A stretch of 58,131 nucleotides of DNA from Candidatus Omnitrophota bacterium. Its GTDB lineage: Bacteria > Omnitrophota > Gorgyraeia > Zapsychrales > Fredricksoniimonadaceae. The stretch is taken from positions 1-58,131 of the forward strand of contig CAWHFJ010000025.1 in NCBI GenBank assembly GCA_963828495.1, read 5' to 3'. Made by a program: the position numbers and the translations under genes. This document shows, piece by piece, positions 14,852-58,131 of this stretch. The notes under the pieces were generated by a model. That model had not been told where the DNA came from. It ran no database searches and saw nothing but the letters and a program-made list of their open reading frames with translations. Position 1 is the stretch's first letter. Each line of letters starts with the position of its first letter.

Positions 14852-14889
14852 ATAAGAAAATTTTTATTTTATTTTAACGTTCCTTTTAC
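14852..14889 (+). repeat. AT-rich conserved intergenic element, copy 2 (partner at 126-163)
   Basis: See copy 1. Sits 10 nt after the HK stop and about 60 nt before the receiver gene. Confidence 0.5.
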
Positions 14890-14949
14890 TTCGGTTTTGG
14901 TAAAAAGAATGCTAGGCAAATGAGGATTTGCCCGGAAAGGAGTGTGCGC

Positions 14950-35759: not shown

Positions 35760-37433
35760 CTATCTTCCTAACCTTGAACCCTGCTTTAAGATAAGCGGGG
35801 TTCTTTTTTTGTCTGTCACCCAAAACTCCAGGTATCGGCCTAACATCAGACGGGTTTGGGCGTCCAGCGCGGGCAGGGCGCTGAATAGAACCAGAATGAG
35901 CGGGACCAACAGCCACTCTAAGGCGTGGCCCAATTTGAGCAACCAGTCGTAGCGCATCTTTGTTTTTGGCAACAAAGACAAAGAGAGCACGATACTGATG
36001 CATACGGCAAAGAACCCCAGAGAGAAGATGGTGTTGGCGATAGCAGGCACGTTATAATAGACGACGGACGCGGCGAATTCGTTGCGGGCAAAAATAACCG
36101 GAAGCCAGCCGATGATCGAGAGTATAAACCCTGAGGTCGCCCAGGACAGATGTCCTTCAAAAAGTTTAAAACTCAACCGGGCTCTTTCATACAACGGGAT
36201 TTTTTTGGATTGTAGAAAAGCCCGTGCCACGATCGGGAAATTTTCAACCCCCCAGGCCCAGCGTCTTTTTTGTTTGTAGACACTTTTGACTGTCTGCCAC
36301 CAGTTGTTCGCACAGGCGACATCCATGGACAGGGTGACATACATGGGGATGACTTGATAATCCCCATCGTAGTGAATATACGCTTTCCAGTAAATAGCGG
36401 AGTCATCGGAAATCATATCGATCGGCCAATAATCCACGTCAACTAAAGCCTTGAAGCTCATGCTGTGGCTGGAGAAGGTGACCAGTTTTTCGGGGTTGGT
36501 GGCTTCGATCAATTGGAAAAATGAAGAACCTGTTTCGACCACACGGGCAAAGCCCGGCACATGCCATATATTATTATGATAAACCGGGATAGGCTGGAAA
36601 CTGGCGCGCAGGCGTTGAGGGCAAATCATAAAATGATGGGTTAAGCAGGCAAAATAGTTGGGGCTGACAACAGTGTCCGCGTCGAAACAGGAACTGACGA
36701 CATTGGCAAAAGGGATTTGGCGTTGGGTGAAGAATGCCGCAGCTTGTTTGGCGGCACAGGTAATATTGGCCCCTTTGACCCGGGCTTCTTCGGGGACATC
36801 CGCTGGATGCAGGACGGCCCAACAGGAGAAAAACACATTTTTATATTTATCTACCAACTGGTGTACGGCCTTTTGGACCGGGGGTTGGGCGCGTTCTTCC
36901 AGGGCAAAGATAACGACGATCTGCTTGAGCGGAAAATTTTGATGACTGACAGCTTCAATGGCCGGTTCCAGGATGTCGAGGTCTTCTTTGATAACAGGGA
37001 AGATGACTAAATGATAAATATCTTTGGATGCAGGCGGCAAGATTTTGCTGTTGACAAGTTTGTCTAATTGTTTCAGGTGAATGTCCTGGGAGATGTAGGA
37101 ACGCCAATGGGTCCCTAGTTTTTTGTATTTATTCTTTCTCGGGTAGGTTTGTATGTTGTCAATGTCATGGATGCGGTCCATCCAGTCTGTTTTCTTTTCA
37201 ATATTCAGACGCAGATAAGACAGTAAAAGAAAAATGGTGGAATACAAAATTCTGAGGATCCATGAGAGATAAAAAGCCACAATAAGAATAGCGGCACTGA
37301 TGGGGGAAAAAATAGAAAGGACAATCAGCCCCAGCAAAACGACCCAGGTGGATAGACCGGGGAGCACTTCCAGGAATCTTTGCAGGCGGGCTTGGCGCGA
37401 TGACAAATTTTCTTTAGAGTAAGGGAATTTCAC
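35760..37433 (-). CDS. processive family-2 glycosyltransferase with flanking TM segments (cellulose/chitin-synthase-like)
   Basis: N- and C-terminal TM bundles. Central GT-A with CFDADTVV, ISDDSAIYW and a Q-x-x-R-W motif (YKQKRRWAWG). Confidence 0.75.
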   Translation of the reverse strand: MKFPYSKENLSSRQARLQRFLEVLPGLSTWVVLLGLIVLSIFSPISAAILIVAFYLSWILRILYSTIFLLLSYLRLNIEKKTDWMDRIHDIDNIQTYPRKNKYKKLGTHWRSYISQDIHLKQLDKLVNSKILPPASKDIYHLVIFPVIKEDLDILEPAIEAVSHQNFPLKQIVVIFALEERAQPPVQKAVHQLVDKYKNVFFSCWAVLHPADVPEEARVKGANITCAAKQAAAFFTQRQIPFANVVSSCFDADTVVSPNYFACLTHHFMICPQRLRASFQPIPVYHNNIWHVPGFARVVETGSSFFQLIEATNPEKLVTFSSHSMSFKALVDVDYWPIDMISDDSAIYWKAYIHYDGDYQVIPMYVTLSMDVACANNWWQTVKSVYKQKRRWAWGVENFPIVARAFLQSKKIPLYERARLSFKLFEGHLSWATSGFILSIIGWLPVIFARNEFAASVVYYNVPAIANTIFSLGFFAVCISIVLSLSLLPKTKMRYDWLLKLGHALEWLLVPLILVLFSALPALDAQTRLMLGRYLEFWVTDKKRTPLILKQGSRLGR

Positions 37434-38503
37434 GGAGTTTTAATCCTCAGTGGCTGATTGTGCAAAATCGCAACCGTGTCTAAAAACAGGGTGTCGTCAT
37501 CCAGATAAAAAAGTTCCCCGTTCTTTTCTTCGAAATACATATTTGTCAACGGACGGGATCGAGCAATCGTATAACTTTCAGGGACGTCAAAATCGGCTTT
37601 TGGGTAAATCCGTATCCAGGGCCCTTCCCGTGTGAGCAGGTCATTTTTGTTATTAATGAGAAATGCTTGTTGCACCCGAGCGGACGGCGCTTGAGGTAGG
37701 ATGCCGGGTGGTCCTGCCGTGGGTTTAAAAGGATAAATAGTTTTAGTTTTGATATTGATGCGGGTAATCGCCTGCGGATAAAAAGCCCATATATTTTTAT
37801 CATCTGTATTTGCCCAAACAATGTTATCCGGAATTGGACCGAAAAGATCGGTAATGTCTTCGATCAAGGGGGGCTTGTCTTTTAAGCTGACCCATAAAAA
37901 TTTATGTTTATCATGGAGGGACGCCTCCAGCAGAATATAAGGGCTTTTATCTGCGTTAAATACACGGACTAATTGCCCATCGGCGTAAATGGCATTTTTT
38001 AAGAACAAGGGGAGGGCCTCATGATTATTATTTTCGTCGGTGCGGAAGATGTCGATATCTTTAAGTACGGGATTAATCCCCACTAGGATGCCGGCTGAGG
38101 CGCCAATCAAGTTCTGATAAGGCTTGTTGGAAATCCTTTTAATGGGCCATTGTTCAGGAATAAGCAGGGTATTCTCCAGGACGGTGGCTTTTTTACCGAC
38201 TATGGGGATGCTTTTTTCCCAATCTTTATAACCATCGAGCTGCAAGCGGATAAAATGTTTCCCCGGCGTTAAATCTCTGATCACTGTAGGGGTCGTCCCA
38301 TGAATCATGCGGCCGTCCATGAATACGGCGGCATCCGGCGGGTTGGTAGAAACATAGACTAAGCCGGTTTTGACAAAACGGTGCGTCAGGGGATTGGTGA
38401 CAAATCCCAGCATGCGGGCGATGATCAAGGGGGTGAGGACAAGATAGAGAAGACAAAAAACGGTAAATAGTATCTTTCTAAGCCTAAGCATGACCCAAAT
38501 CAT
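37430..38503 (-). CDS. PEGA-domain protein with an N-terminal membrane anchor
   Basis: VSTNPPDAAVFMDGRMIHGTTPTVIRDLTPGKHFIRLQLDGYKDWEKSI. Its 3' end overlaps the GT2 start by 4 nt. Confidence 0.7.
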   Translation of the reverse strand: MIWVMLRLRKILFTVFCLLYLVLTPLIIARMLGFVTNPLTHRFVKTGLVYVSTNPPDAAVFMDGRMIHGTTPTVIRDLTPGKHFIRLQLDGYKDWEKSIPIVGKKATVLENTLLIPEQWPIKRISNKPYQNLIGASAGILVGINPVLKDIDIFRTDENNNHEALPLFLKNAIYADGQLVRVFNADKSPYILLEASLHDKHKFLWVSLKDKPPLIEDITDLFGPIPDNIVWANTDDKNIWAFYPQAITRINIKTKTIYPFKPTAGPPGILPQAPSARVQQAFLINNKNDLLTREGPWIRIYPKADFDVPESYTIARSRPLTNMYFEEKNGELFYLDDDTLFLDTVAILHNQPLRIKTP

Positions 38504-38599
38504 AACTCATGTTGCCCCAGCAAGCAATAGGGAATATTCATAACCTAATTCACAGCAGCCGTTGAATTTAGTATTGTGTCCTTTCAATTTTTATGTATA

Positions 38600-39103
38600 A
38601 TGGCAGACATGCTTGCGTTTATTATGATTAGTTTTGGCATCCTTTCTCGCGTTATAGTTCATGCGCCTAATTTTACGCCGGTATTAAGTTTGGCTTTATT
38701 TGGGGGTATGTATCTGAAAGGCCGTCAGGCCGTAGGGGTGCCTTTGGCATTGATGGCCGTTAGTGATTTTATGATCGGTTTCCATCATGTGATGTTTTTT
38801 ACATGGGGGAGCATAGTGGCAATCAGTGTTTTGGGGCTGTGGCTAAAGAAAAGAAAAAATTTTGCAACGGTGTTAGGCACCAGCATTGTCTCAGCCGTGG
38901 TGTTTTTTATAGTGACTAATTTTGGCGCGTGGCTGACATCATATCCGCATACGATGGATGGCCTGAGGCAATGTTATATTTTAGCCATTCCGTTTTTCAG
39001 AGGCACATTTATTAGCACTATAGCGTATAGTGTGTTTTTTTGGGCTGTTTACGAATGGATATTAAAGCGCAGCCGGGGTACGGCTTTGGCGCGGTTGATC
39101 TAA
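38600..39103 (+). CDS. polytopic membrane protein, DUF6580-like putative transporter component
   Basis: Five or six TM segments. RVIVHAPNFTPVLSLALFGG resembles what I remember of DUF6580 (from memory). The start is uncertain (38600 or 38609). Confidence 0.5.
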   Translation: MADMLAFIMISFGILSRVIVHAPNFTPVLSLALFGGMYLKGRQAVGVPLALMAVSDFMIGFHHVMFFTWGSIVAISVLGLWLKKRKNFATVLGTSIVSAVVFFIVTNFGAWLTSYPHTMDGLRQCYILAIPFFRGTFISTIAYSVFFWAVYEWILKRSRGTALARLI

Positions 39104-39111
39104 AAAATACA

Positions 39112-39297
39112 TACTAGTTGGGGAAATCTCGTGTGAATCGAGAACAGTCCCGCTGCGGTGACCCCTTAAGGGGCAGTCCGAAGACCTAACGGTATTTACA
39201 AGCTGAATGCCTGCGAGAGAACAGGACAGGAAGCGCATATATTGAGAAGTGTTACGGGAACGCCCTCAATCGTCATTGGATGGTTGAGGGTTTTTTA
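39112..39297 (+). promoter_or_regulatory. cobalamin (B12) riboswitch with an intrinsic terminator expression platform
   Basis: Core GGGAAatctcGTGTGAATCgagaaCAGTCCCGCTGCGGTGA, then a B12-box-like CAGTCCGAAGACCTAAC. Terminator ccctcaa (39263-39269) pairs with ttgaggg (39284-39290), followed by T6. Confidence 0.7.
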
Positions 39298-39357
39298 TTT
39301 GGCCCCCGCCTGGGCTGATGGCCCAAGCGGCGGGGGGCTGTAAAGAGAGAGAGTGCC

Positions 39358-41080
39358 ATGAGAATTTTAGGTTTGATTTTTATATTATTTTTATCTTTGG
39401 TTAATGTGGCAGCGGCGCAGGAAGTTTTGGATTTGGACAAAATTGTTGTTGAGGCGTCCCGCAGCAATGATACTGTTGGTGCAATGAATAAAGATGTAAC
39501 CGTTATTACTTCTGAGGATATTGCCAATTCGCCGGCTAAGAGTTTGCCCGAGTTATTGAACGAAGTGCCTGGTGTTGACGCAAGAGTCAATAGCAGTATT
39601 AAGGATCAGCAGATTGATATGGGGCAGTTTGGGGAGTCGAGCATGTCTAATGTGGTGGTGTTAATTGACGGCCGGCGTTTGAATACGCCTGATCTGGCTG
39701 CTGCGGATTTGTCACTGATTGACGTAAATGCCATTGATCATATTGAAGTCATACAAGGGGCCGGTACCGTGCTTTATGGGGACAATGCCACCGGTGGGGT
39801 CATCAATATTATAACCAAGAAGGCCCAAGAAAATACCAAGCCGTCCATTACCTTGACCAGTGAAGTGGATGAGTTTAAGGGGAATAAAGAGGGCATGAGC
39901 TTAAGCGGCGGACTGCCTCAATTGACGTATCAAATTGATTATAACCGCCAACAAACGGACAATTATCGTACCCAAGATAATTATTGGGCCAATGATTACG
40001 GTACGCGTTTAAACTATAACCCTACGGATATCTTTGGTGTTGATTTTTCAGAAGGTTATCACTTGGACCGTTATCGCCTGCCGGGGGCCATCAGTCTTGA
40101 GGCAATCAACACCGCGGGGCCGACGGGTGTGGACCCATCAAGTACCGATTATGGGACGACATCGGATTCTCATTTTGATGTTACCCCGCATATGAAATTT
40201 GACATAGGCGCCAGCCATGTGGATCTTTCATTATTTACCTCTGCCCGTAAGAGTGATACTAATTTCGTTTCAAGTTTTGAGTCAACAAACTATGAATTGG
40301 AATCCTATGAATTTCAACCTAAGCTCATCGTATCAACTCCTTTAACAGATCGTTTGAGCAATAAATTAACCTCAGGGTACGACTATATTTATTATACGGA
40401 AAAACGACGCATCGATCCTGACGGTGAACCTGAGGATATTGTTCATGCCAGCGAGGCTTCACAGGGGGTTTATGTGTTAGATGAGGCAACCCTGGATGAT
40501 CGTTGGCTGCTGAATGCCGGGGCCAGGGGGTCGTGGGCAGACTACGTTTTTGATCAAACACAACAAGCAGCTGCAAAATTTGATCGTTCCCCTACAAATG
40601 AAGGCTATGAGGGAGGTTTAGGGTACAAGTATAATCCTGATTCAAAAGTATTTGTGGATTATACCCGTTCCTATCGCTTGCCCAAACTCGATGAATTTTT
40701 TGAAAACCCTTATTGCATTTATGGGTTTTGTGTACCGGGAGGGTTAAATTCCGGATTAACCCCGCAGGTGGGCAATCAGTACCAATTAGGTATTAAGGAC
40801 AAAAGCTTTAAAGGCATTCATTTAGGTTCCAGCTTTACAGAGGTCCAATATAGGAATGAGATTTACGATGATCCTGCAACATTCTCTAATGCTAATTACG
40901 ACGGTAAAACGAGGCATTATAGCGAAGAAGCAGATCTTGCCGTGGCACTGTTTAATAATAAGATTGAGCCGTTTGCCAACATCACCTTCCAACAAACGGA
41001 ATTTATTAAGGGACAATATGCGGGCAATCAAATCCCGGATGTCCCTGACCATCTGGCCCACGCGGGCATAACTTATCGGC
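39358..41080 (+). CDS. TonB-dependent receptor (BtuB-like), 3'-truncated at the block junction
   Basis: Signal peptide, TonB box DKIVVEASR, plug (LLNEVPGVD...VLIDGRRLN...IEVIQGAGTVLYGDNATGGVINIITKK) and barrel. The C-terminal strands and terminal aromatic residue are missing. Confidence 0.85.
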
Positions 41081-41099
41081 CGCTGGAGCGGTTAAGCAC

Positions 41100-42090
41100 G
41101 ACTATTCCTGCGGCGACACACGTCGGAAGCAGATCGAGTTGAACGACCGGCTTTTCGTACAACTTGCCGGCCGGCAGCTTTCCCTTCCATTGGACCATGA
41201 ACGGCACTCGCATGCCGCCTTCCCAGGTCGTGTACTTGAAGCCGCGGAGCGGGCCATTCCCTTCCGGATGGCCGCCGGTGTCCCGTTATCGCTGACGAAG
41301 AACACAAGTGTGTTCTCCTCGTGCCCGGTCCGGCCGCATGGCTTCGAGGACTCGTCCCACGCCATCATCGAGCGCCGAAAGCATGGCGTTCAACACGCGC
41401 TGTTTGCGGTCGGTGACGTGCTTGAACCGCTCCAAATACTTGTCCGATGCTTCATGTGGTCCGTGGATGGCATTGAACGGTAGATACAAGAACCACGGGT
41501 TGTCCTTGTGCCGGGTGATCCAATCACTGGCCCGCGGCAAAGGCATCCGTTGTGTAAAAGTTCGGGTCCTCGATCGGCTGAACGTCGGCCGAGACCCGCG
41601 AGTCGATGAACCCGCCTGGTTCGAAATACGAGCCCGGATTGCCGGTCACTCCGTAGTAGTCGTCGAAACCACGCGACATTGGCAAGCGACCATCGATTTT
41701 ACCAAGATGCCATTTGCCAACCGCGGCGGTGCTGTAGCCGAGCGTTTTCATCCGATCGGCAAAGGTTTTTTCCGTGAGCGGCAGTCCGCCGCCGGCCAGC
41801 GAATTGTTTTCATGGCCATACCGCGTCGGATAGCGGCCGGTCATCATTCCGGCCCTCGACGGTGAGCAGAGCGGGGCCGAGACATAACCGGCCGTGAAAC
41901 GAATGCCGCTGGCGGCAATCGAATCGATGTTCGGAGTTGGCACTTGCTTGCCGCCATAGCAGCCCAATTCGCCATACCCCAGATCATCCGCCAGGATCAC
42001 GAGGATATTCGGCAATCGATCCGCCGCCGCCGGGCGAGCCGCCATTGAAAAGCTGGCCAACACGATGAGGGTCAAAAGACATGCTTTCAC
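41100..42090 (-). CDS. arylsulfatase-family sulfatase, 3'-truncated at the junction and frameshifted at least 3 times as read
   Basis: Signal peptide, NILVILADDLGYGELGCYGG, formylglycine motif CSPSRAGMMTGRYP, GKWHLG. Later segments (NPWFLYLPFNAIHGP, TLVFFVSDNG, GHPEGNGPLRGFKYTTWEGGMRVPFMVQWKGKLPAG...QLDLLPTCVAAGI) are in other frames. Confidence 0.85.
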
Positions 42091-42286
42091 GATTGCTTGC
42101 TCCTGGCAAGGCCTGGATTGCAGTGGGCGGCGATGAAACGACCGCCCAATAGACGCTTGAGCGAGGCAGATTATTTGCCTTGCCTGGTAGTCGCAAGGTG
42201 CCTTCCCATAACGACAGGCTGTATGCTTGATCGGAAAAGGCCCGGCAAGCTGTTCGCGGCCATTGCTGCCACGCTACAATTCGACC

Positions 42287-42703
42287 ATGAAATCCAAGAC
42301 CGAATACCTGACGTTTAACCTGCCGGCCCGCATGGCCTTCCTGAACATCACGCAGGAAGTGGCACGGATCGTTCGCGAAAGCGGCGTCCAGGAGGGCCTG
42401 GTGCTGTGCAACGCGATGCACATCACGGCCTCGGTGTTTATCAATGACGACGAGCGGGTTGCACGAGGACTATAAGAAGTGGCTCGAGCAACTGGCTCCG
42501 TTCGATGCGTCGCCCAGCCGCTATCAACACAATCGCACCGGCGAAGACAACGCGGACGCGCACATGAAGCGGCAAGTCATGGGCCGCGAGGTCGTCGTGG
42601 CCATCACGGCCGGCAAGCTCGATTCGGACCGTGGGAGCAAATCTTTTACGGCGAGTTCGACGGCCGGCGGCCAAAGCGCGTGCTGGTCAAAGTGATTGGA
42701 GAG
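42287..42703 (+). CDS. yjbQ: YjbQ/UPF0047 family protein (secondary thiamine-phosphate synthase), frameshifted at least 2 times as read
   Basis: [18 protein letters not shown]...[20 protein letters not shown] / [15 protein letters not shown]...[28 protein letters not shown] / [24 protein letters not shown]. No stop is found in the last frame. Confidence 0.75.
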
Positions 42704-43141
42704 TCAGCGCATTTGCGTCAGGCCTCGATCCGCGGAGCGTTACGGTCCCAATCAGGGACCGTGGCCATCGTTACGCTCGTGGCAGGCTGTGCTTTTCCGA
42801 CTGCCTCATGCTAGCACCTCCGCTAAACCCCGCCGCAGATGACGAATTGGCCGCCGATCGACCAATTCGCCCAATCAAGCCGGTCTAAACTGGGAAGTCT
42901 GGCTGAGTTGTGCGCTTTGTTCCAAAAAGCGTGAAATGCCGGTTACGCCGAGTCGATGAGTTTTTCTGAGCAAACCGTTTATTCCCAAAAGTGTTGTTAT
43001 ACGGAACGATCGGGAAATGCTCACCTGGCCGCGGCAACCCGCTTGCCGCCGCGCTTAGAGGCGGAACGAAACCCAGCAGCCAACGACAAAGACCCAGCGG
43101 CGGCGAAAAACGCTGGCCGAGCACGAGCATCGACGGAAAAA

Positions 43142-44692
43142 GTGTTTCCCTTATCGGCACGGTTTGTTCCCAACTCCGTTCGCCGCCTGGCTTGGAGTTT
43201 GACCCTGGCGATTGGCGGCGTGGCTACGGCGGACGATGGCCTGGCCGACAAACTGATCGCTCCGCCGCTTCCGCCGGCCCCGTCGAGCGCAGCCAACGCT
43301 CCAGAAGAAGTCGAGGCCGAAAACACGGAAGTCATTAGGAACGCTATCCGAACCGCAACGTCAAGGTGGAACGCCACGTCGCCCAAGATGCGGACGGCAA
43401 TTATGCCAACCATGGCACCTGGTCCATTGTGGGATTAAGAACGGCCGGCGCATGTGCCGCGGCCAGTATCAGAACGGAGCTCGTGAAGGGAAGTGGGTCC
43501 GGTTCTTCAAAGCCGGTGAGGCCGAAGTCGTATCCGGCCCGCTCGGCAAAAGCTTCAGTGCCCCGTTCACCTCGGCCGTCACGTTCTTGCATGGCGAACT
43601 CAACGGCACGTGGACGATCGTTGATTGCGCGAGCGGCCGGTCATTTCCTGGCAAATGGAAGACGGTCAACGTCACGGCAAGAGCATCTGGTGGTTCCCCA
43701 ATGGCCAGAAATGGCGCGAGATGGACTATGTGCACGGCGAACTCGACGGCTTCCTCGTCGAATGGGACGCCAACGGCAAGCTCGTTGCCAAAGAACAGTA
43801 CGTCGAAGGCCATCGCTGCGGCGTGCAAATCGAATGGTATTCACCAGGCGTGAAGAAGGTTGAAGCCCAGTACATCTTCGCCCGCGACATCGCGCAAATT
43901 AACGACGACTGGTTCAAAGGGACCAGCCACGTCCGAGTCCTCGGCAAGGAGGGCAAAGACGAGCGGCACGGTCACTGGACGACCTATTACAGCAACGGCC
44001 AGAAGGCGATGCAGGGTGAATACCGTTTCGACAAGCCGTCGGGCGTGTTTATCTGGTGGCATCCCAACGGCCAGAAGGCCATCGTCGGCGAATACACGGA
44101 CGGAAAGCAAACCGGCCATTGGGCCTGGTGGCATGCCAACGGCCAGAAACACATCCGCGGCAACTACGAAAGTGGACGCCAGGCCGGCGCATGGACCTGG
44201 TGGACCGAAGACGGCAAGGTCGCCGAAGCCGCCTCCTTCAATGAGGAGGGGGGCCGAGTCCGGCGCGTCGATCGGCCGTTGGAAGCGGTCGAGCAGCCGC
44301 CGGAGTTGCAAAACCCGGCGGATGCCCAGCCTTCGGCGAATGAATCGGCACAAGCCAAGGCGTCATCGGCCGCTGAACCGGCGACGGTAACCCCGATGCC
44401 GGCCGCGACGTTGCCAGCGGAGCCAGCCGCAACGGTTTCGGCTCCTACGAACCCGACGCCAGTTGACAGTCTGCCAGAGCTGACGCAACCGCCAGCCGTG
44501 GTTGAGCCGAGCAATGGGACGGAAGCCGCCAAGCCGAACAGCCCTGCGACCGTGGAAAAGGACGAAGCGGCCGCGCCACCTGCTCCTCGCCGCGCCGCAC
44601 GCTTGGCACCTCCGCGAAGGGCTAGGCGCATCGCGGACCTTGACTGCCTTAGCTCAAGGTCCGCGCCCAATAACATCCACCGCCACGCTTAA
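43142..44692 (+). CDS. secreted MORN-variant (YwqK-type) repeat protein with a Pro/Ala-rich tail, frameshifted at least 4 times as read
   Basis: Repeats of the form G-x-W-x-WW-x-NGQK-x-x-x-G-x-Y-x-x-G (YSNGQKAMQGEYRFDKPSGVFIWWHPNGQKAIVGEYTDGKQTGHWAWWHANGQKHIRGNYESGRQAGAWTWW). The start (GTG 43142) is uncertain. Confidence 0.65.
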
Positions 44693-44996
44693 TACCGCGG
44701 ACGACCGATCTCAACCGTCCACTTCTTCGAATTCGAAGAGCGGGTCGCCTGCACGGACGCTGCATTCAGGGCGGAACTCAGCTCATCGGCCCGCTTCACC
44801 CGCGTCCCAGCGTCGTTAGGAGCGCGCGGGATCTTCCGCGCATCTCCACGCGCCCGGCTTCAGTACCTATATTGAATCGGGCGCACGCCGAACGCCACAG
44901 CGGAACCAGGCGAGGCCTCCAGGCGAACCTTGCTGGTCGCGCCGTGTCAGTGGATTTCATGGGACCTGGACCGCTGCCTTGTTGGTGATTCGTGTC

Positions 44997-46393
<1,397 letters not shown>

Positions 46394-46418
46394 GCCGACC
46401 AGTCTTGCGATGGCCTGC

Positions 46419-48297
46419 TCAATCGAAGCGGTGATGTTCAAACTGACATAGCTGGCGTTCCAGCGTTTCGCGTGCGCTGTAATTGGCTTTGATCCAGTCT
46501 CGCGACTCCTTGCCGAGCATTTGTAGCCGTGCGGGCGAGCTGAACGCCCGGCGGAGCTGGACGACAATGTCCGCCTCGCTATAGGCATTGATTATCGGAG
46601 GGACCGACGGAAAGCGGCCTCGGATGGCGGCCTCGTCCAGATAGGTGCAAACCGGCGCTGTGGCGGCCATCGCTTTGAGCATGATGCCGCCAAACGCGCC
46701 GAGATGGAATTGATCTGCGACCACGTCGCAGGCCTGGGCCGTTCGTTCAAATTGAACCATGCCCATGGTTTCGACCCACTTGACGTCACTCGCGACTCTC
46801 AGCTCCTCGAGCAAGGCCAGACTCTCGGGGACATTGCTTCCCCAACGGCAACAAACCATGCCGATTCGCATACCTTCACCGCGCAGGCGAGCGAAAGGTG
46901 CGCAACAGCTTGTCGTTGCCTTTATCGGCATAGCCGGTGCCAGGAACCCAGTCGTGACGCGTCGGAAAGAAAGATCAGAAAATCGGCATCGAGCTCGCGA
47001 ACCAGTTGAGTTCGCCGTTGATTGATTCCGGTCACGGCCAACGAATGGTCGTCGTCGAATGGATGATTGAGGAACGTGACCCGATCGGCGGCCAATCGGC
47101 GGCCATTTTCGTAGCAGTCGGAGTTCGTGACAAAAACATGTTCGGCCATGTGGTAGGCCAGTGCGGTGAGCCGGCCCGTCGGGTCGTCCTCAAACGGGAT
47201 TTGCGCACAGCGTGCCGTGCTCGAGCGCAAATAGGGGCAATCGGCCAACAGCGGTAAGATCGGGTCCGTCGAGTAGCCCAACAACAGATCGTAGTGGCTG
47301 AACAGTTCTTTCCAATGCGGCATCGCCCAGCGGTAGAATTCCATGTCCTGCCGCGTCAATTGATCGCGACGGCCAGGAAAAGCGGCGGCAAAGGCCTCGA
47401 TCAGCACGTCCATGCGTCGGTCGAAGCTGTATTGTTCGGCAACCCGGGGTGTGATTGCCGTTGCAGCTTGTTGATGCGTCCCATGGGCCGGCGTGAGCAG
47501 CCGGACTGCGGCGCTGCGAAACCGTCTCAGGCAGGTATGAATCGCTTCCGTGAAAAGAATGCATTGCAGCTTCACCAGCTTGGCCACTTGCCGCAGTCTG
47601 GGGTGACGATAGACGAGTGTGACCGCGACCCGAGGCGCAGCCCAGCAACAGCCACCAGCCGCCAGCCTGCCAGCGGCGCGGACTGTGGCGAGCGGCCAGG
47701 TATCTCCAGCACAACCGCGCGGCCCTTGGGCAAACCAGCCCGCGGCCGCCGAAAGCCTCTCAGTCGAACGCGCTCCCAAGCTGGATAAAAGTCGTCGCGA
47801 ACGTCGCCTTCGAAGTCCGCGTCTTCCCACTCGGGACAGCCCATGATGTGGTAATAGTTGTGGCAAATAACATCACTGTCGAGGCCGACCTCATTGAGCA
47901 GCTTGGCATTGTTGTAAGCGTTGTTGGCAATGTTCCCGATGTGCAACAGGCGTGGAGCGCGACCATGGCGTCGGCGAAACTCATCCAGCCAGGCAATGCA
48001 TTCAGGCGCGACCCGGCCAGTGGACGGATCTGGCAGCGGAGGGGAATCGTGGCGAAGTGATCGCCGCGACTTCCGGAGAACGGAACAAACTATTGCAGCC
48101 AGGTTGCTTAAGGTGAAGCCGATTAATGGCCGGTCCACGCGGAAGATCGTCTGGCTGTCGTTGTCACCGGCGAACGAGGACATCTGGCGACGGCCTGCCG
48201 GCAGCTTCCAATGCCCCAACCGCCGGAAAACCCTTGAGCTTAAGCGCTCAACGAAGAACCGCACTCCCGGCTTCCTGCCTGGGGTCTGTGGTGTCAT
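46419..48297 (-). CDS. large glycosyltransferase-like protein (GT-B C-terminal half), frameshifted at least 2 times as read
   Basis: N-terminal LLHIGNIANNAYNNAKLLNEVGLDSDVI. C-terminal FGGIMLKAMAATAPV resembles the GT4 E-x7-E region, but both Glu positions are replaced (G and K). Confidence 0.45.
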
Positions 48298-48401
48298 GAA
48301 TGATTCCGCCGCCTGGCTCCGATTCCGATTACAGACTTTGTGGCTACAGCTTAGCCGATCTTACGGCCCGGCAACAACGCACCGGTCGGCAATGAACCCG
48401 C

Positions 48402-48830
48402 TCAAGGAATTGCTAGCCCCTTTCGTCCTTCAAATCCGAAGGCTTGCGCGAGCTTGGAATCAATCGCCAGTCTGTCTCGGAGCATGGAGAGGCGATTTTG
48501 TCGGCGGTATGTCCCGGTCCAACCAATGGCGGAGTCGAGCATAGAACTGGCCTGAAGTTTCGCCTTCCATGCCTGGCACTCGCCGAGAAGTTTCGTTCGG
48601 CGCTGCAACTCAGCGGCTCCGGGAGGAGTTTGTTCAAGCTGGCGGACGAACGCCAGTAACTCCGTCAGCTTGCCGTCATTAAGCTCTTCTACAAGGAGTG
48701 CCTCTTGCCGGCTTTGGTACTGCAGGGTTATCTCGTGGTCCTCACGATTCGCTTTTCGGCTGGCATCCATCCTGAATCTCCATTTTCCATCGCGTTTGGA
48801 TTCACTACAAACATGATAGCAGTTCGGCAC
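48402..48830 (-). CDS. hypothetical protein
   Basis: 142-aa ORF with coding-like composition and no motif. Confidence 0.3.
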   Translation of the reverse strand: MPNCYHVCSESKRDGKWRFRMDASRKANREDHEITLQYQSRQEALLVEELNDGKLTELLAFVRQLEQTPPGAAELQRRTKLLGECQAWKAKLQASSMLDSAIGWTGTYRRQNRLSMLRDRLAIDSKLAQAFGFEGRKGLAIP

Positions 48831-49033
48831 GATGCTGATGGCAAAAGCCGAGGCTTGCGGACATGATTTGTTGCGATTTTCGCGCCATGTTGCTCATATT
48901 ATACGCGGCTTTCCAGGCCGCAGTGGACAGCGTTGGCCTCGACTCGCGTCAGTTACCGGTTGTCGGACGGCGTACATTCGGCCTGGTGTGAAAGCCGGCT
49001 CGTTGGAAATCTTTTCAAGAAAGGTCGGCTGCC

Positions 49034-49617
49034 ATGCGATTCATGAAATCGGCATCGCCTCAGGTTCTTTTGGTTTGCGGCATGGTCCTGGCAACCTTCA
49101 GCGCAATCGGGATCGGACAGAGCAAGTTGACCGCGGCAGAACCGGCCGACAAGATTGGGCAGCTTTTCAAGGCGGACGACTTCTGGTCGCGAACCGGAGC
49201 CAGCCCGATCCACGATTCGATCACGCCCAGGGACAACGATTCCGTCCGGCAATTGGCCGGAAATGCAGAGCATTCCGCCGTGCGTATTCGAGCCTTCAAG
49301 GTGTTGGCCGATCTTTACGGACGGACTCAGTACGCAAGCGATGTTCCGCGCGAGCAGAGGTTAGAGGCGGTCGAAGGTTGCTTTTTATATTTGGAACAGC
49401 ACTTGACGCCCCCGTGGTATCGAAGTTTCGGCCAGAATTAGGATTCACCCACGTTAGTCTCTCGAAGCGGTCAGACGATCGGGATGGACTGTGGGTGCTG
49501 ATCGAGGCCACCGATGGCGTCTTGCCAAGCGGCGGCTTGAACATCCGCTGGGATCTGACCTCGAAGGCGGTCGATCGAATCGACCATTGGGGAGCCAACC
49601 GTAATCCCCTGCCGTAG
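49034..49617 (+). CDS. secreted hypothetical protein, probably one frameshift near 49435
   Basis: Signal peptide MRFMKSASPQVLLVCGMVLATFSAIGIG. The reading continues in another frame (LGFTHVSL...DRIDHWGANRNPLP*). Confidence 0.35.
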
Positions 49618-49883
49618 GCACCGGCTATGCTTCTCCGGCTAGGAAGCCAGATCAACATCCTGGCTTTGGCGGTCCGGCGAGTGACGCCAACCCACCTATT
49701 TTAACAGGCGGATGCGCTCGGTTGCATGGTTGTGGGCGATCGCAAAAAAATCGCGAGATTTTCTGCCGTTACCTGTCGCCGACCCGAAACGGCTCGCGTT
49801 TAAGAGGGCAGGAACATCTCATCCCTCGAAACTTGCCGATTCCGGCAGTTTGTGGGCCTTGTCCTTGAGAAGGGTAGCCACAC

Positions 49884-51105
<1,222 letters not shown>

Positions 51106-51174
51106 CTTGTTTTCCAAGTCGACGAGGCCGTAGCCTTTAAAGTCATCCATGACTGTCGCATCGCAATGAGCAGT

Positions 51175-51220
51175 CCGCGTCTCGGTGGCCAGTCGGTTAC
51201 CGAGACGCGGCTGTTTTTCT
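51175..51220 (+). terminator. rho-independent terminator after the repeat-protein gene
   Basis: 12-bp perfect stem: ccgcgtctcggt (51175-51186) pairs with accgagacgcgg (51199-51210), followed by ctgttttt. Confidence 0.7.
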
Positions 51221-51356
51221 GCCTGGTGTGGCGGCGTGGCCGCTTTCGAGCAATTGCCCGCGGCGAGCCGAGCAACGAAGCGTCACTCAGACGCTCGACG
51301 GCTCCGTGCCGGGTGGCCACAATACGCGAGCTTGCACTTGGAACAAAGGAGTCCAC

Positions 51357-52158
51357 TTGAATCCAGCTTCGTGTGTCATCTTAGTGCCCGATGCCGGATC
51401 GATTTCGCCGGAATTCGCCCAGGGCCTGCAAGTGCTCGAAGGGCGTGGCTACGCCGTGCGCCTTGACGGATGCGCAACCGATCGAAGTCGTTCCGGCCCG
51501 CCATGGCGCGATACGTGTTGGCGGCGGGGTTTGATGAGTTGATGTGGATTGACGGCGACATCTCGTTCCAGGCCGACGATGTGGAAAAGCTACGTCGACA
51601 CGAGCAGCCACTCGTCTGTGGCATTTATCCGAAGGTGCGAAGCCGCGAATTGGCCTGTGCCTTTCTGCCTGGGACGGAAAAGATCCAGTTTGGCGAGATT
51701 GGCGGCCTGGCTGGAGATTTTGTGTGGCGCGTTTGGTTTCATGTTAACTCGCCGCGTTGTCTTCGAAGAGATCCAGCGGCAGTTATCATTGCCCGAGTGC
51801 AATCAGCGATTTTGGCACCGCTATGGTGCCGTGGTTCATGCCATTGTTGGCTGAAGATGCCGCGGCCGGACCTTGGTACCTGGCGGACGATTTCGCATTC
51901 TGCGAGCGTGTGCGGCGCTGCCAGTTCAGAGATCAACTGGCAGATAGCAGCGTCCGACTGTGGTGCATGGGCCGCGCTATCTTTTGGCTGGAAGACGCCG
52001 GCAGCGACAAGCAGGAATATGCCAGTTACATCTTCCATTTGCCGGCAGCGACGGCCGGACCGCAAGCTGTGGAGCTGCTGATGCCGATGCAACAACCCAC
52101 ACAACCCAGTGAGCGTAGCGTGGCCGAGCAGCAATCCGCCTCGCGGCGCGTTGCATGA
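51357..52158 (+). CDS. GT-A-type (family 2-like) glycosyltransferase, frameshifted at least 3 times as read
   Basis: TTG at 51357 after aaggag. CVILVPDAGSISPEFAQGLQVLEGRGYAV, ELMWIDGDISFQADDVEKL, GGL.EILCGAFGFMLTRRVVFEEI, PWYLADDFAFCERVR. Confidence 0.55.
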
Positions 52159-52169
52159 GCCGCCACGGC

Positions 52170-52615
52170 CGCTGCGGGACGATTTCCCACGTTTTCGGGC
52201 TTATGTTGTGAGCTATGCGGCGGACAATCACGAAGCCCTTGCAGGAAACCTTGAAGTCGTATTGCGAAAGCGATTGGGGCGAAGAGCCGCGGGTGTTTAT
52301 GCAACCGGACGATTGGCCGCTAGGCACCCAATCGGCGGCTAATAATTACAAGCGCGGCTTGAAGCGGCCATCGAAGATGATTGCGACTTTGCAGTCATCT
52401 CGGAGGACGATGTCCGCGTCAATCGCCACTTGCGGCGTAACCTGGGGGCGATCCCGCTGTTGAACCGCGATCAATGCGACTATTTCAGTCTGTTCATGCC
52501 GGACCTGATTGCCTCGCCCTGGGAACGGCAAGAACCGCATCTGGGATATCGCCTGGCGAAACCGTTGTACAGCGGTCCCAATCACATGTGGGAAAAACAT
52601 CGGATTTGGCAGTGA
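52170..52615 (+). CDS. hypothetical protein fragments (possible small glycosyltransferase, GT25-like?), frameshifted
   Basis: FPRFRAYVVSYAADNHEAL..., then ...DFAVISEDDVRVNRHLRRNLGAIPLLNRDQCDYFSLFMPDL.... The resemblance is weak. Confidence 0.25.
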
Positions 52616-52830
52616 ACAACCTACGTCTTGTCGCGCCGCTTCATTTTGCAGCGCCGAGCGCCGGGATCGCCTGGCTGAATCGCAGGACACGAGGGTCGTC
52701 TCGGTCTGCTCGGAGCTCCGTTTACCAATGTGGTATTCGGCTCCCTGTCTGATGCAGCATGCCCCGTTGCGTTCGGCGTTTAGCACCCCGGCGGCATACG
52801 CCCCCGACTTCGACAGCGACTTTATCTTCG

Positions 52831-53281
52831 ATGTCCGCGCCGGCTATCAGCTCGCTGGAGGCCATCGCCGGCTGGCTAACATGCGACGAGGGCAGCTTTG
52901 GGGAAGCCGGTGGCGCGGGCGCGATGCTCCGAATTGGGCACGACCGCAGGGCGAGCGACCGTCTGCTGTGCAGCAGAGTCGGCGCGTCGTCAGCGTCGAT
53001 CCGCTCGATCAGAGCGAAGCCCGTCAGTGGACCGCGCGTTACGGTCTGGCGGATCGCGTCGAGTTTCGCGCAAGGCGAGGTCATCGACTGTTGCCCCCTG
53101 CTGGATCAGCAATTTGACCTGGTGTTCCTGGGATACGGAGTACGATGTGGAGTTGCTCCGTGTGATCGACCAGCCCTTGCCACGATTACGACCAGGCGGT
53201 TATCTGGCCGTTCACGACTACCCCGATCCGGACTGGCCCGAGGTGCGGCGCGTCGTGGACGAGTACTGGCGCGGCGACTGA
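52831..53281 (+). CDS. class I SAM-dependent methyltransferase (Methyltransf_24-like), frameshifted as read
   Basis: LEAIAGWLTCDEG..., VVSVDPLDQSEARQWTARYGLADRVEF, FDLVFLD.EYDVELLRVIDQPLPRLRPGGYLAVHDY. Confidence 0.5.
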
Positions 53282-53631
53282 ACTGGAAGCGTCATGGGCA
53301 GGTCGACTACCTCGGCGTTTTCCGTACGTGAGCAATCGTGCGGGTATTGATCCATCGCGGCTCCGCCAGCCAACAGCAACGGTTGAAAGAAACGGCCGCA
53401 AATGATATGCCTAACCTTGATGGCACTAGCGGCAATCGCCAGAGTACCCGCTTGCTCAAGGCGTTGCGCGAACTGATTGTAGGTGAATGGCCCCCGTGTC
53501 GCCTTCTTCTCGTCGTGGCGGCAACCATTTGCAGGCCTGGGCTTGCCCTGATTGCCAAGCACGGCTGACGGCCTTGCCGGCTTGGGCGAAAGCGTACCTG
53601 CGCGGGCAGCACTACCTGAAGGGGAGAGAAG

Positions 53632-54992
53632 ATGTTTCGCGTCAAAGCATCTGAGGGCACCGAAGAGCTTCTCTGCCGCAGAACTCAACTCTACGGATCA
53701 CGCTATTGCTGGCCTGCACCCTGGCCAGTTGCGGGTCGATTTATCTGATCTTCCAAGACATCGTCGCGTCAGTGCCTGGCTCGAAGCTCGAACCGCTGTC
53801 GATGTCGAGCCTCGCATCGCTAAAGGCAGCAGCTCAGCCTGCAACTCTGCGGAAGTCTGGTCGTCCTCGCCATCCTGCTGTTTTGCCAGATCGCCATGTG
53901 GTGGCTGCGGCGCCGGTACCTGTTTAGCCAACAGTCTTTACGCCAGGTGAAGATGCTCGCACATGACATTTTGGCAAGCATGGACCGGGGTGTCCTGACG
54001 ACCAACTGCGAAGGAGTCGTCACAAGCATCAATTCAGCAGGAATCAACCTACTTGGGTTGGACTTTGAATGCGTCGGCACACCAGTTGCGTCCATCTCCT
54101 CGGCGGGATGTGCCTTTGGCCGAAGTATGCGGGGACGTACTTCGGAGCGAGGTAGCGGTTTGCGATCGTAACGTAAAAATCGAACGAGTGGGGCGCGTTG
54201 GCGCATTCGGCGACTGTGCATGTGCTTCAAGACAGCGAAGTGGCAGTCGTGGGTTGCGTTATCCACCTGCGCGATGTGACCGAGCGGATGTTGTTGGAAG
54301 AACAGATGCGCCGGATGGAGCGATTCGTCAGCGTTGCCATGTTGGCATCCGGGCTGCATCACGAAATCAAGAATCCGCTAACCGCCTTGAGCATCCATAT
54401 CCAACTCCTGGAGGAGAACCTGTCGTCTAGCGAGCCCGAGCAACAGGTCAACGAAATTGTCGGCGTACTGAAAACCGACTTGCCATTCGGCTCAACGGCG
54501 TGCTGGAAAGTCTTCCCGAAACTTTGCGAACCTTCAACATTTGGAACTGCAGCCGACCGACGTTCTGGACTTGGTCGAAAATGTCATCCGCCTGATTCGG
54601 CCGCAGGCGGCGAAACAGAAGGTCGAGATATGTTCCTCCGGCCAGACGCTGAACTGCCTCGCGTGCCGATGGATGCCGACAAGTTCGAAGAAGGGCCTGT
54701 AACCTCGTCATCAATGCCCTGGAGGCAATGCCGGATGGTGGCAAACTGACGCTGAACCTCTTGGCTGGCAACGGCAAAGTCTGTCTCGCGATTGAGGATA
54801 ATGGTTTTGGCATCCCGCCCGAGGTACAGCGCAACCTGTTTCGGCCATACTTCTCGACGAAGAGCAAAGGAAGTGGGATGGGTTTGGCATTGTGCGAGAA
54901 GTTAATCAGTCAGCACGGCGGACAAATCGACTATCGAACGGGCACAACAGGAACAACTTTTGAAATCAGCATCCCACTCCACAAATCAATGA
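53632..54992 (+). CDS. membrane PAS sensor histidine kinase (NtrB-like), frameshifted at least 4 times as read
   Basis: ATG after aggggagag. Two TM segments. PAS (LAHDILASMDRGVLTTNCEGVVTSINSAGINLLG). H-box LASGLHHEIKNPLTAL. ATPase GGKLTLNL...IEDNGFGIPPEV...STKSKGSGMGLALCEKLISQHGG. The end is assumed at an ATGA overlap. Confidence 0.75.
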
Positions 54993-56358
54993 AGTCCATG
55001 AAGCGATCGAAATTTTCGCATCCTGATCGTCGACGATGAGCCGAATATCCGCGCCTGGCCTGGCGAAGGCTTTGGCCGGCGAGGCTGATGAGGTCGATAC
55101 CGCTCAAGACGAGGTTGCCGCTCTCGCCTTATTCCGCAAGGAACACCACCATCTCGTGATTACCGATCTCAAGATGGTGGGACCTCGGCCGGGCTAGATC
55201 TGATGAAGCAGATCAAGCAGGAGAGGCCGAGACGCTGATCTTTGTCATTACGGCTCATGGTACCATCGATACCGCCGTCGAAGCCATGCGGGCCGGCGCC
55301 CATGAACTATATGAGCAAACCGGTTGATATCGGGATGCTGCGCCTTCAGGTTCGCAACGCCTACGAGCACCATCGGCTGACTCGAGGAGAACCGCCAACT
55401 CCGCAATCGGTTAGCGATGGCCGGCGAGGTTCCCGAGATGATCGGCCAAAGTCGCCGGCAATGCACGACGTGTTCGATCGGATTCGCCAGGTTGCCGCCA
55501 CGGATGTGACCATCTTGATCCACGGTGAAAGCGGTACCGGCAAGGAGCTGGTTGCCCGGGCTCTCCATAACTTGAGCCCCAGGTGTCTCAGCAACCGTTC
55601 ATTGCTGCGAACGTCGGCGCCTTGCCGGAATCACTGATCGAAAGCGAGCTATTCGGCTACGAGAAGGGAGCCTTTACCGGGGCTCATCGAGATAAGCCCG
55701 GTTGGTTTGAAATGGCTCAAGGCGGTATCTTGTTTCTCGACGAGATCGGAGAAATGCCGCCGAAGACGCAGGTGGACTTGCTGGCGAGAGCGCTGGAGCA
55801 GCGCAACTTGCCGGGGTCGGCAGTGAGGACTTGATCCGCGTTGACGTGAGGCTCATCGCCGCGACGCACCGAGACACCGCGACGTTGGTACGTGAGGGAA
55901 AATTTCGGGAAGATCTGTATTATCGATTGAACGTCGTACCGTTGCGGGTGCCTCCATTGCGTGAGCGACGTGACGACATCCCACTGCTGGTCGAGCATTT
56001 CCTTTGCCGATCCAGGGAAAGTTACCAAAAAGAGGCGCAAAGACGTCGCCGAGGCTGCCATGCGTATCATGTGTGGCTACCCTTGGCCGGGCAACGTCCG
56101 GCAGTTGCGGAATTGCATGGAACGGCTGACGGTCACAGTCGAAGGCCCCTCGATCCATGCAGAGGACTTACCCGAGGACATGCTTGCCGTGCCCGACCCA
56201 ACCGTTGTGACCCTGGAGCAAGCCGTCCAGAAAGCAGAAAAGGCCGCGATCTTGGCCGCGTTGGGGCAGTGCAACCAGCATCGCGATGCTCGGCCCATCT
56301 CCTCGGCATCAGCGTCCGGAACCTGCATTACAAGATGAACCGCTACGGTTTGCAGTAA
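54989..56358 (+). CDS. sigma-54-dependent response regulator (NtrC/AtoC family enhancer-binding protein), frameshifted at least 6 times as read
   Basis: Receiver [11 protein letters not shown]...VITDLKM...[21 protein letters not shown]+ [89 protein letters not shown]. Fis-type [21 protein letters not shown]. Confidence 0.85.
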
Positions 56359-56378
56359 TCATCTGCTTTTCAAGGATC

Positions 56379-56415
56379 TGCAAGATTTTGCAGATAATGT
56401 GCAGCGGTTTGCAGA
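56379..56415 (+). promoter_or_regulatory. helically phased TGCA(G/A) array, candidate enhancer (UAS) for the adjacent activator
   Basis: TGCAAG at 56379, TGCAGA at 56389, TGCAGC at 56400, TGCAGA at 56410 (10-11 nt spacing). A further TTTGCAG sits at 56348. Confidence 0.35.
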
Positions 56416-56515
56416 GTCGTTGACCCGAGGTCGCGGTGCTGCTGGGACGTGCCTGCGGCTACAACCCTAGACTCGTTCGGCCGGATACGCTCTTCGCGGG
56501 AGCAAGTCCTAGTTC

Positions 56516-56530
56516 CGGCATGCGCTTTGC
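56516..56530 (+). promoter_or_regulatory. sigma-54 (-24/-12) promoter candidate
   Basis: CGGCAT-GCGCT-TTGCG against consensus TGGCAC-N5-TTGCW. GG and GC are at the correct spacing, about 100-150 nt downstream of the TGCA array. Confidence 0.45.
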
Positions 56531-56684
56531 GGGTCTTAGTTTGCAACGTATCCGCCCGCGATTATCCAGGTAGGGCGACCTCGCGCCGTAACCAGCGACT
56601 TGAGCGTTGCGGGTCGCCAGCCTCGCCTAATCTGCACCATCGGATTTCGCGCGGCTCTCGCATGTCTGGACGCCCGGAGCTTCT

Positions 56685-56897
56685 ATGGCAGTTGATTCCG
56701 ACACCGAGACACGCGGCCTTTCGCGACATGTCAACCCGAGTGTTCGTCCTGTTTGGAACTCGTTCGACTATGCGCACCAGGACAAACTACTGGGCGACGA
56801 TATGCATGCCGGCATCAGTGTGTCTCTGGTTCTTGTGGCCTGCTTTGCTATCGGGTTGACGATGATCGGAATCGCCGTGGCCACACTGATCGTTTAG
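56685..56897 (+). CDS. small protein with a C-terminal TM helix, hypothetical
   Basis: 70-aa ORF ending ...MHAGISVSLVLVACFAIGLTMIGIAVATLIV*. The start is uncertain. Confidence 0.3.
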   Translation: MAVDSDTETRGLSRHVNPSVRPVWNSFDYAHQDKLLGDDMHAGISVSLVLVACFAIGLTMIGIAVATLIV

Positions 56898-56960
56898 GGC
56901 CGTTGAGTCCACCGCGTCAAAAACACAAATTGTTCGTCCGGTGGAGATGGGGCCGCGACA

Positions 56961-57455
56961 ATGCACGAAACAAGCCTCGTCTCATCGGGCGTTAGCCTGG
57001 CAGATGTTTTTCCGCGAGATGCGATACTGCTCGGCCTCCAGGTGCACACAAAGTGCGCGGCGATCGAACGGATGGTTTATCACTTGGCCGAACTACAGGG
57101 CCTTGGGCGCGATCGCGAGCGACTCCTAGTCCAAAGCATTCTCGCGCGGGAAACAGCCGGCTCAACCGGCATCGGAAATGGAATCGCGATCCCGCATTGT
57201 CGTTCAAGCCTGGTCGACAAGTGTTTCGGCGTATTGGCCCTTGATCCTGCTGGTGTTCCGTTCGACACGCTGGACGGAGAACCGGTCTATAGCGTTTTTC
57301 TTCTCGTGGCACCCCTGGATGGCATTGACAAGCCGTATCAAGTTATCGGAAAAATCGCGGCTATTGGCATGAACAAGAGCCAGCGCATACGATTGCAGGG
57401 ATGTAGGACGCAGGAAACAGCTCATCACTTCCTTTGTGATTTCGATCGTCCATAA
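56961..57455 (+). CDS. ptsN: PTS EIIA type-2 domain protein (PtsN / EIIA-Ntr-like), intact
   Basis: RETAGSTGIGNGIAIPHCR (active-site His context), PVYSVFLLVAP. Confidence 0.75.
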   Translation: MHETSLVSSGVSLADVFPRDAILLGLQVHTKCAAIERMVYHLAELQGLGRDRERLLVQSILARETAGSTGIGNGIAIPHCRSSLVDKCFGVLALDPAGVPFDTLDGEPVYSVFLLVAPLDGIDKPYQVIGKIAAIGMNKSQRIRLQGCRTQETAHHFLCDFDRP

Positions 57456-57817
57456 AGGCTACCCGACTGGGACCGCTGTTCGGTGAGCCAAGACAGAATA
57501 CCCCATGCCACCAGCGCGGAAGTATTTGGCATCAAGTCAGAGCAGTTGCCTGCGAGGGGAGCTCAAGCGACCTGCTCGCGCTGGGGTGTCCCAAAGGCGG
57601 CAAGCGACTGCTGATTCGCTTCAGCCAGACTCCTCAGGCCTCAGGCGGGACTGCCGGCTGCCTGATGATTCGGCGCGACAAGTGTTGTGGGGTTCCTGTC
57701 GTGACGGCCTTTCGCAAGCGCCCCCCTGGGTCAAGTCGTTGGGCCTGAAAGTGGTGACTCAACCGCCGGCGACCTAGGAATATTGGCTCCGCTTACGAAG
57801 TTGAGCGATTCCCTGCC

Positions 57818-58084
57818 TTGGAATTCGCTTTCACCTACTGCCGTGGCCCAGGCGTCGTGCATACATACCGCTGCAAGGACTGCGGCTGCCGTTTGTGGGC
57901 ACGGCTAACGAGCGGAAAGTGGATTTTAACACTCCGAGTTCTCATGGTCCCTTGCTGCCCGCATTCCGCCAGCCCCGATGTTCGCCGTTCGCCGTTTCGC
58001 TGGTTTGAGCGGTTGCTCGGGCTATTGCTCATGCGCCCATATCGTTGCTCGAACTGCGGAAAGCGATTCTGGGGTGCGTTCTAG
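57818..58084 (+). CDS. small double CxxC (zinc-ribbon-like) protein, hypothetical
   Basis: YRCKDCGCRLW ... RPYRCSNCGKRFW. Non-ATG start, so uncertain. Confidence 0.3.
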   Translation: MEFAFTYCRGPGVVHTYRCKDCGCRLWARLTSGKWILTLRVLMVPCCPHSASPDVRRSPFRWFERLLGLLLMRPYRCSNCGKRFWGAF

Positions 58085-58131
58085 CCCTCGCAAGGGATGG
58101 GTCGGCTGGCCGGCAAGTATCGGAGAGCGGT

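Follow-up and report, generated by a model that had tools for sequence, protein, structure and literature searches.

Composition, truncated genes and frameshift density point to a chimeric contig of Candidatus Omnitrophota and Planctomycetia-like DNA

Contigs that combine DNA of different genomes are a form of contamination of metagenome-assembled genomes (MAGs), of the kind sought by tools such as GUNC. Errors linked to low coverage have been described for Flye assemblies run with '--meta --nano-hq', a report with no link to the DNA treated here (PMC12313526). The window, i.e. the whole stretch of 58,131 nt analysed here, resembles inter-genome mis-assemblies of metagenomes in several respects: composition and taxon change abruptly, genes are cut, hallmarks of mobile elements are missing and the native continuation is found elsewhere. 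We estimate a probability of about 95% that it is a chimeric contig in which a polished Omnitrophota piece (left arm, 1-41107) is joined bluntly to a poorly polished, unrelated Planctomycetia piece (right arm, 41108-58131). The features are compiled in Table 1.

Table 1. Features of the two arms and of the join. Positions refer to the window.
Feature	Position	Strand	Basis and remarks
Left arm: Candidatus Omnitrophota genome segment	1..41107		44.8% GC, high-quality consensus, contig alignments
Right arm: Planctomycetia-like DNA	41108..58131		59.9% GC, low-quality consensus, ~1 frameshift/300 bp
TonB-dependent receptor ORF, 594 aa	39358-41142	+	Plug domain and barrel profile positions 11-385 of 436 (Pfam)
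TonB-dependent receptor, native 3'-truncated part	39358..41107	+	residues 1-583 of the 667-aa protein P0001
Spurious tail of the receptor ORF, PAATHVGSRSS and stop (11 codons)	41108..41142	+	antisense strand of the sulfatase
Breakpoint of the chimeric join	41107..41108		DNA alignment of L003-L005; all blastn alignments to independent contigs end at 41102-41107
S1-family sulfatase, 3'-truncated, 3 frameshifts	41108..42090	-	C-x-P-x-R motif LCSPSRAG; Pfam, tblastn
UPF0047 (YjbQ-like)	42212..42692	+	Pfam UPF0047 positions 1-40 and 39-93 in two frames
MORN-repeat-variant protein	43625..44692	+	longest open frame of the right arm, 355 aa
RtcB RNA ligase, 5 frameshifts	45048..46390	+	Pfam RtcB positions 131-289 and 292-375 in different frames
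Sensor histidine kinase	54177..55036	+	HisKA and HATPase_c in different frames
Sigma-54-dependent activator, 4 frameshifts	55239..56355	+	Sigma54_activat positions 4-49, 48-121 and 122-167 in three frames
PTS EIIA-2 (PtsN-like)	56907..57455	+	Pfam segment scan

The original prediction placed an abrupt compositional break near 41.1 kb, which is confirmed by a GC step, a change point and tetranucleotide usage. GC content is 0.448 in the left arm and 0.599 in the right arm. In windows of 1 kb it ranges from 0.35 to 0.51 up to 41 kb and from 0.55 to 0.69 thereafter; windows of 100 nt show a rise from 0.42 to 0.60 across 40950-41150. The maximum-likelihood change point on GC falls at ~41.02-41.03 kb. 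The description of the left arm as AT-rich holds in relative terms only (45% GC). Between the arms, strand-symmetrised tetranucleotide profiles show no correlation (r = -0.02). All chunks of 4 kb lying within one arm reach r ≥ 0.81 with their own arm and r ≤ 0.29 with the other one, and the chunk spanning the join (40001-44000) yields r = 0.26 with the left and 0.86 with the right arm. Sliding-window GC and tetranucleotide profiles, which had been proposed as a check, separate the two arms fully. Moreover, the composition of the right arm does not drift towards that of the left arm.

The exact breakpoint was located in the receptor gene. A protein search (BLASTP) matched the product of the receptor ORF to P0001, a protein of 667 aa. 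The two are identical up to residue 583 and unrelated beyond, which means that the ORF product lacks 84 C-terminal residues. P0001 is encoded on the Logan contigs L003-L005, which stem from three independent runs. Their DNA is identical to the window through position 41107 and different from 41108 on. The receptor had been thought to stop making sense after ...ITYRP. This is too early, as the alignment of L003-L005 shows native sequence through ...ITYRPLERLSTTI, i.e. base 41107. The predicted loss of the last barrel strands agrees with the truncation relative to P0001. No filler, adaptor or duplication is visible in the window DNA at 41107/41108. The join may include a few bases of microhomology, the right arm being without a reference for comparison.

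The chimeric 594-aa receptor is P0362, a protein listed under NCBI and ENA that falls into one cluster with the genuine proteins of 667 aa. Hence a public protein record exists that is partly antisense sulfatase, namely in its 11 spurious C-terminal residues.

On the opposite strand the sulfatase starts at 42090 and its active-site motif is intact. Pfam Sulfatase positions 1-124 and 151-224 lie in different frames and ORFs. Three-frame reading together with tblastn using homologues places the frameshifts at ~41535, 41330 and 41285. After correction of the frameshifts the sulfatase comprises 328 aa. It aligns colinearly with the carrageenan sulfatase 6prm_A (469 residues) over residues 22-347 of the latter and lacks ~120 C-terminal residues relative to it. 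Counting only codons made up entirely of right-arm bases, the sulfatase ends with 41111-41109 (Ala). The peptide had earlier been followed to ~41103; the truncation stands, but the final 'G' and 'I' were read across and beyond the join. Taken together, two 3'-truncated genes abut tail to tail, as had been claimed.

How the left arm continues natively is revealed by independent contigs. Two of its stretches, 36448-39150 and 39306-41107 (4,505 bases), are 100.000% identical without gaps to five independent short-read Logan contigs, two of which cover the first stretch and three (L003-L005) the second. The complete 667-aa receptor is found on ten independent contigs, in three cases at 100% nt identity, in six at ~77-91% nt and in one at 65% aa. 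These are L003-L005, the contigs L011-L016 carrying full-length members from the 90%-identity cluster of P0001, and L006 (JADFXH010000004.1), a contig of a GTDB Omnitrophota MAG. L011 is an ENA k141 contig of 74.6 kb; L012 and L015 derive from JGI (3300014839 and 3300031524, respectively), L013 is a Logan contig, and L014 and L016 are ENA contigs. In all ten the receptor is followed by OEP, RND adaptor, ABC ATPase, ABC-2 permease, MscS and a cation-efflux gene. L006 shows this order at 66-89% aa identity, and L003 additionally carries Ppx and PPK downstream of the cation-efflux gene. The genes of the OEP/RND-adaptor/ABC operon, MscS, the cation-efflux gene and the 3' end of the receptor are found nowhere in the 58,131-nt window.

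The upstream order of the window (signal peptidase, CDP-alcohol phosphatidyltransferase, PlsY, GT2, PEGA, DUF6580) is present on L011, L012, L014 and L015 as well. In blastn alignments, colinearity with the window begins at 29520 for L011 and L012 (86-91% nt) and at 35809 for L014 and L015 (77% nt). All four alignments end at 41102-41106, and the contigs continue for another 10 kb. Since these four contigs carry both the upstream and the downstream order, they bridge the breakpoint natively. Thus, with ten contigs continuing the receptor natively, the true neighbour of the left arm is known and differs from the right arm. Recurrence of the junction in independent assemblies had been named as an argument against a mis-join; the opposite was found, with ten native continuations and alignments that stop at 41102-41107. 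A 37-mer spanning the junction is absent from genome_contigs and metagenome_contigs, a result of little power, as a 40-mer of the native junction is likewise absent from metagenome_contigs and the closest receptor among GTDB representatives reaches only 65% aa.

The intergenic stretch 39150-39306, located 5' of the receptor, behaves differently from its surroundings. L001 ends at 39150, and L003, L004 and L005 all begin exactly at 39306. Alignments to the relatives of 86-91% identity also break at 39197-39209. This suggests that the spacer is strain-variable or hard to assemble.

Intact genes in independent assemblies would also be compatible with a variant of a single strain. The junction would then be real, an Omnitrophota strain having taken up at least 17 kb of Planctomycetia DNA into its receptor gene by horizontal transfer or illegitimate recombination, with the frameshifts representing pseudogene decay. 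The contig does exist as a single public record. Moreover, its end at 58131 lies inside right-arm DNA, such that the far end of an insertion would be located beyond it, leaving room for a matching second junction. However, the incoming DNA would itself be cut in the middle of a gene, the sulfatase, and its composition would not have drifted towards that of the left arm at all. We consider a real junction of this kind extremely unlikely, and both the frameshifts and the surroundings of the join speak against it.

The density of indels had been predicted to change at the join. This change is real: a single candidate frameshift in 41 kb of left arm compares with 13 in ~3.9 kb of identifiable right-arm genes, i.e. 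~1 per 300 bp. The latter comprise three in the sulfatase, five in RtcB, four in the sigma-54 activator and one in UPF0047. A tblastn search with P0251 returned RtcB pieces in three frames, and the frameshift sites were read directly in the sequence. In the sigma-54 activator AAA_lid_14 positions 1-27 and 22-76 are in two frames, and HTH_8 is back in the earlier frame. The Pfam analysis of the right arm included ~25 stop-free segments and thus covers it partially. Open frames of at least 300 aa cover 17% of the right arm versus 56% of the left arm, with a right-arm maximum of 355 aa. The codon phase of highest GC changes about every 300-500 bp in the right arm. Because homology splits the genes over frames, these switches represent frameshifts inside genes.

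Half of the right-arm frameshift sites located at nucleotide level (6/12) sit at runs of at least 4 identical bases, while such runs occur in only 14% of the 15-nt windows of this arm. In the left arm runs of this length are more frequent (24 per kb vs 8 per kb in the right arm). Nevertheless the left arm is clean and shows zero differences from the short-read contigs; hence sequence context does not explain the difference in errors. The RtcB fragment of 255 aa is 86% identical to its best relative and has no in-frame stop. Frameshifts at homopolymers combined with high protein similarity are the signature of consensus errors and not of decay. Defects which are almost solely frameshifts, half of them at homopolymers, fit poorly to a captured and decaying segment, as does an error density that shifts where the taxonomy shifts despite the more numerous homopolymers of the left arm.

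The candidate in the left arm concerns a class I/II aminotransferase (27408-28497, + strand), which is represented by two overlapping ORFs with Aminotran_1_2 positions 2-194 and 195-361 in different frames. The split at ~27.9-28.2 kb represents either a genuine frameshift or an error left in the consensus. For a neighbouring protein, meant to lead to independent contigs, no exact record was returned.

Repetitive elements were observed in both arms. In the right arm, 50181-51036 holds ~10 tandem copies with a period of 84 nt and 60-80% identity. One frame of this array encodes Gly-Ser runs broken by KAPPPPPV motifs, a putative low-complexity repeat protein whose true frame is obscured by frameshifts. 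The left arm contains a 55-nt AT-rich direct repeat (126-180 and 14852-14906, copies 78% identical) and, inside the ORF 21922-23646, four tandem units of 102 nt (34 codons) with 63-75% identity at 23179-23586.

The two arms are assigned to different phyla. Separate classification, which had been recommended, assigns the left arm to Candidatus Omnitrophota, based on the named receptor homologues and all three GTDB matches, and the right arm to Planctomycetia. The named relatives of the RtcB fragment at 71-76% identity are Planctomycetaceae, Planctomycetales, Blastopirellula and Polystyrenella longa; those of the sulfatase are Planctomycetes, Pirellulaceae, Lacipirellulaceae and Phycisphaerales. 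The suspected Planctomycetota-like character of the right side is therefore supported by both genes. For the right arm the search for a native continuation gave no result: its closest sulfatase relative is fragmentary, 72% identical and without synteny, the RtcB relatives at 86% and 81% lie on large ENA contigs which have nothing but the RtcB gene in common with the window, and an exact look-up of the PtsN-like ORF gave no match.

The contigs with the closest RtcB relatives, L009 (ENA ERZ25039544 contig_24792) and L010 (ERZ25039454 contig_2787), show peculiarities of their own. Adjacent gene calls belong to one family (DabA with 681 and 376 aa, MFS_1 with 306 and 307, lactate permease with 406 and 140), and RtcB itself is annotated with 364 and 394 aa instead of ~447, which suggests that these assemblies suffer from frameshifts in a similar way. 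That the closest relatives of the right arm reside on ENA contigs named 'contig_N' with split genes fits long-read data but says nothing certain for the window.

Consensus quality, composition and taxonomy all change at the same point, which argues against a single replicon. A real molecule could, for instance, stem from an Omnitrophota strain with at least 17 kb of captured Planctomycetia DNA in its receptor gene; the low quality of the right arm would then need another cause, a combination that is hardly credible. If true, it would hint at a physical association of both organisms, e.g. a host or prey relationship.

The surroundings of the join were inspected for boundary elements. A tRNA is not found in the whole window, and no direct or inverted repeat in it involves the junction or links the arms. 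Two terminator-like sites near the join compare with 1.5 expected, which is chance level. The join shows no target duplication. Among the ~25 right-arm fragments scanned against Pfam, a selection that is not exhaustive, no recombinase or integrase family was matched. Hence the statement that terminator, repeat, tRNA and recombinase are missing near the join is upheld, for recombinases within these fragments. The same negative results count against a real junction.

The locus is similar to the boundary of a genomic island in that the compositional step is sharp and the genes on the right side are foreign to the lineage of the left arm. It differs from such a boundary by the missing tRNA and direct repeat, the lack of an integrase in the scanned fragments, the truncation of both flanking genes and the change in quality. 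An island was considered and rejected, given that boundary elements are missing, the incoming DNA is cut mid-gene and the quality step coincides with the junction. That this is no normal island boundary had been stated from the outset and agrees with our data, as does the mis-join of two organisms, for which composition, taxonomy, native continuation, truncations and the frameshift step speak in concert. The suggested checks that work without reads all lead to this result. The break at 41.1 kb is an assembly artefact and not a biological feature.

How the chimeric contig arose can be outlined as follows. The two arms of one molecule would share sequencing depth and show similar consensus quality. 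The step in frameshift density, which takes the place of the coverage step proposed as a check, thus suggests two templates of different abundance. One indel per 300 bp, as in the right arm, would not be left by a purely short-read assembly; an error-prone long-read or hybrid-polished assembly would fit better. Most likely, a chimeric read or a wrong link in the assembly graph extended the end of a high-coverage Omnitrophota contig into the sequence of a low-abundance Planctomycetia organism. High versus low depth would then account for the near-perfect consensus on the left and for homopolymer-type indels being kept on the right.

Alternatively, two finished contigs may have been concatenated after assembly with no N spacer between them, be it in scaffolding, binning or curation or when files were handled. 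A blunt join with no detectable overlap, repeat or filler would be expected in this case, and the sharp difference in consensus quality resembles that of two contigs assembled separately at different depth. Contig ends produced by an assembler, however, seldom leave two coding sequences abutting base to base, and we regard such a concatenation as very unlikely. It has the same practical outcome as a mis-join during assembly, namely that the contig has to be split at 41107/41108.

Whichever step produced the chimeric contig, its value is limited to matters of data quality, with the contig and the chimeric protein on record under NCBI/ENA. Binned as a whole, it would burden a genome bin with foreign DNA amounting to 17 kb or 41 kb. 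Such a bin could be credited with the sulfatase, RtcB and sigma-54 two-component system of another phylum, and the contig could also be misread as inter-phylum gene transfer. Splitting at the breakpoint removes the problem. Every gene call in the right arm should be regarded as damaged by frameshifts. Where frameshift density shifts together with composition and taxonomy, the shift marks a mis-join, a check which does not require reads.

Compared to usual mis-assemblies of metagenomes, the window stands out by the strong difference in consensus quality between its arms (~1 frameshift per 300 bp vs roughly none). This difference points to long-read data of unequal depth; it is not what a mis-join via shared k-mers in a short-read graph would yield. 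Chimeric long reads, formed by ligation or in silico and known for nanopore and PacBio, are the second related system. As in these, two unrelated molecules are joined bluntly and residual indels favour homopolymers. The join of the window has no adaptor remnant, and its origin in a read is a probable one. Between the join and the end of the contig lie 17 kb, a length that a single long read could cover. With ~0.3% frame-disrupting indels the right arm lies below raw reads of older chemistries; a residual error that low indicates that it is probably a single read of high accuracy or a consensus of low depth.
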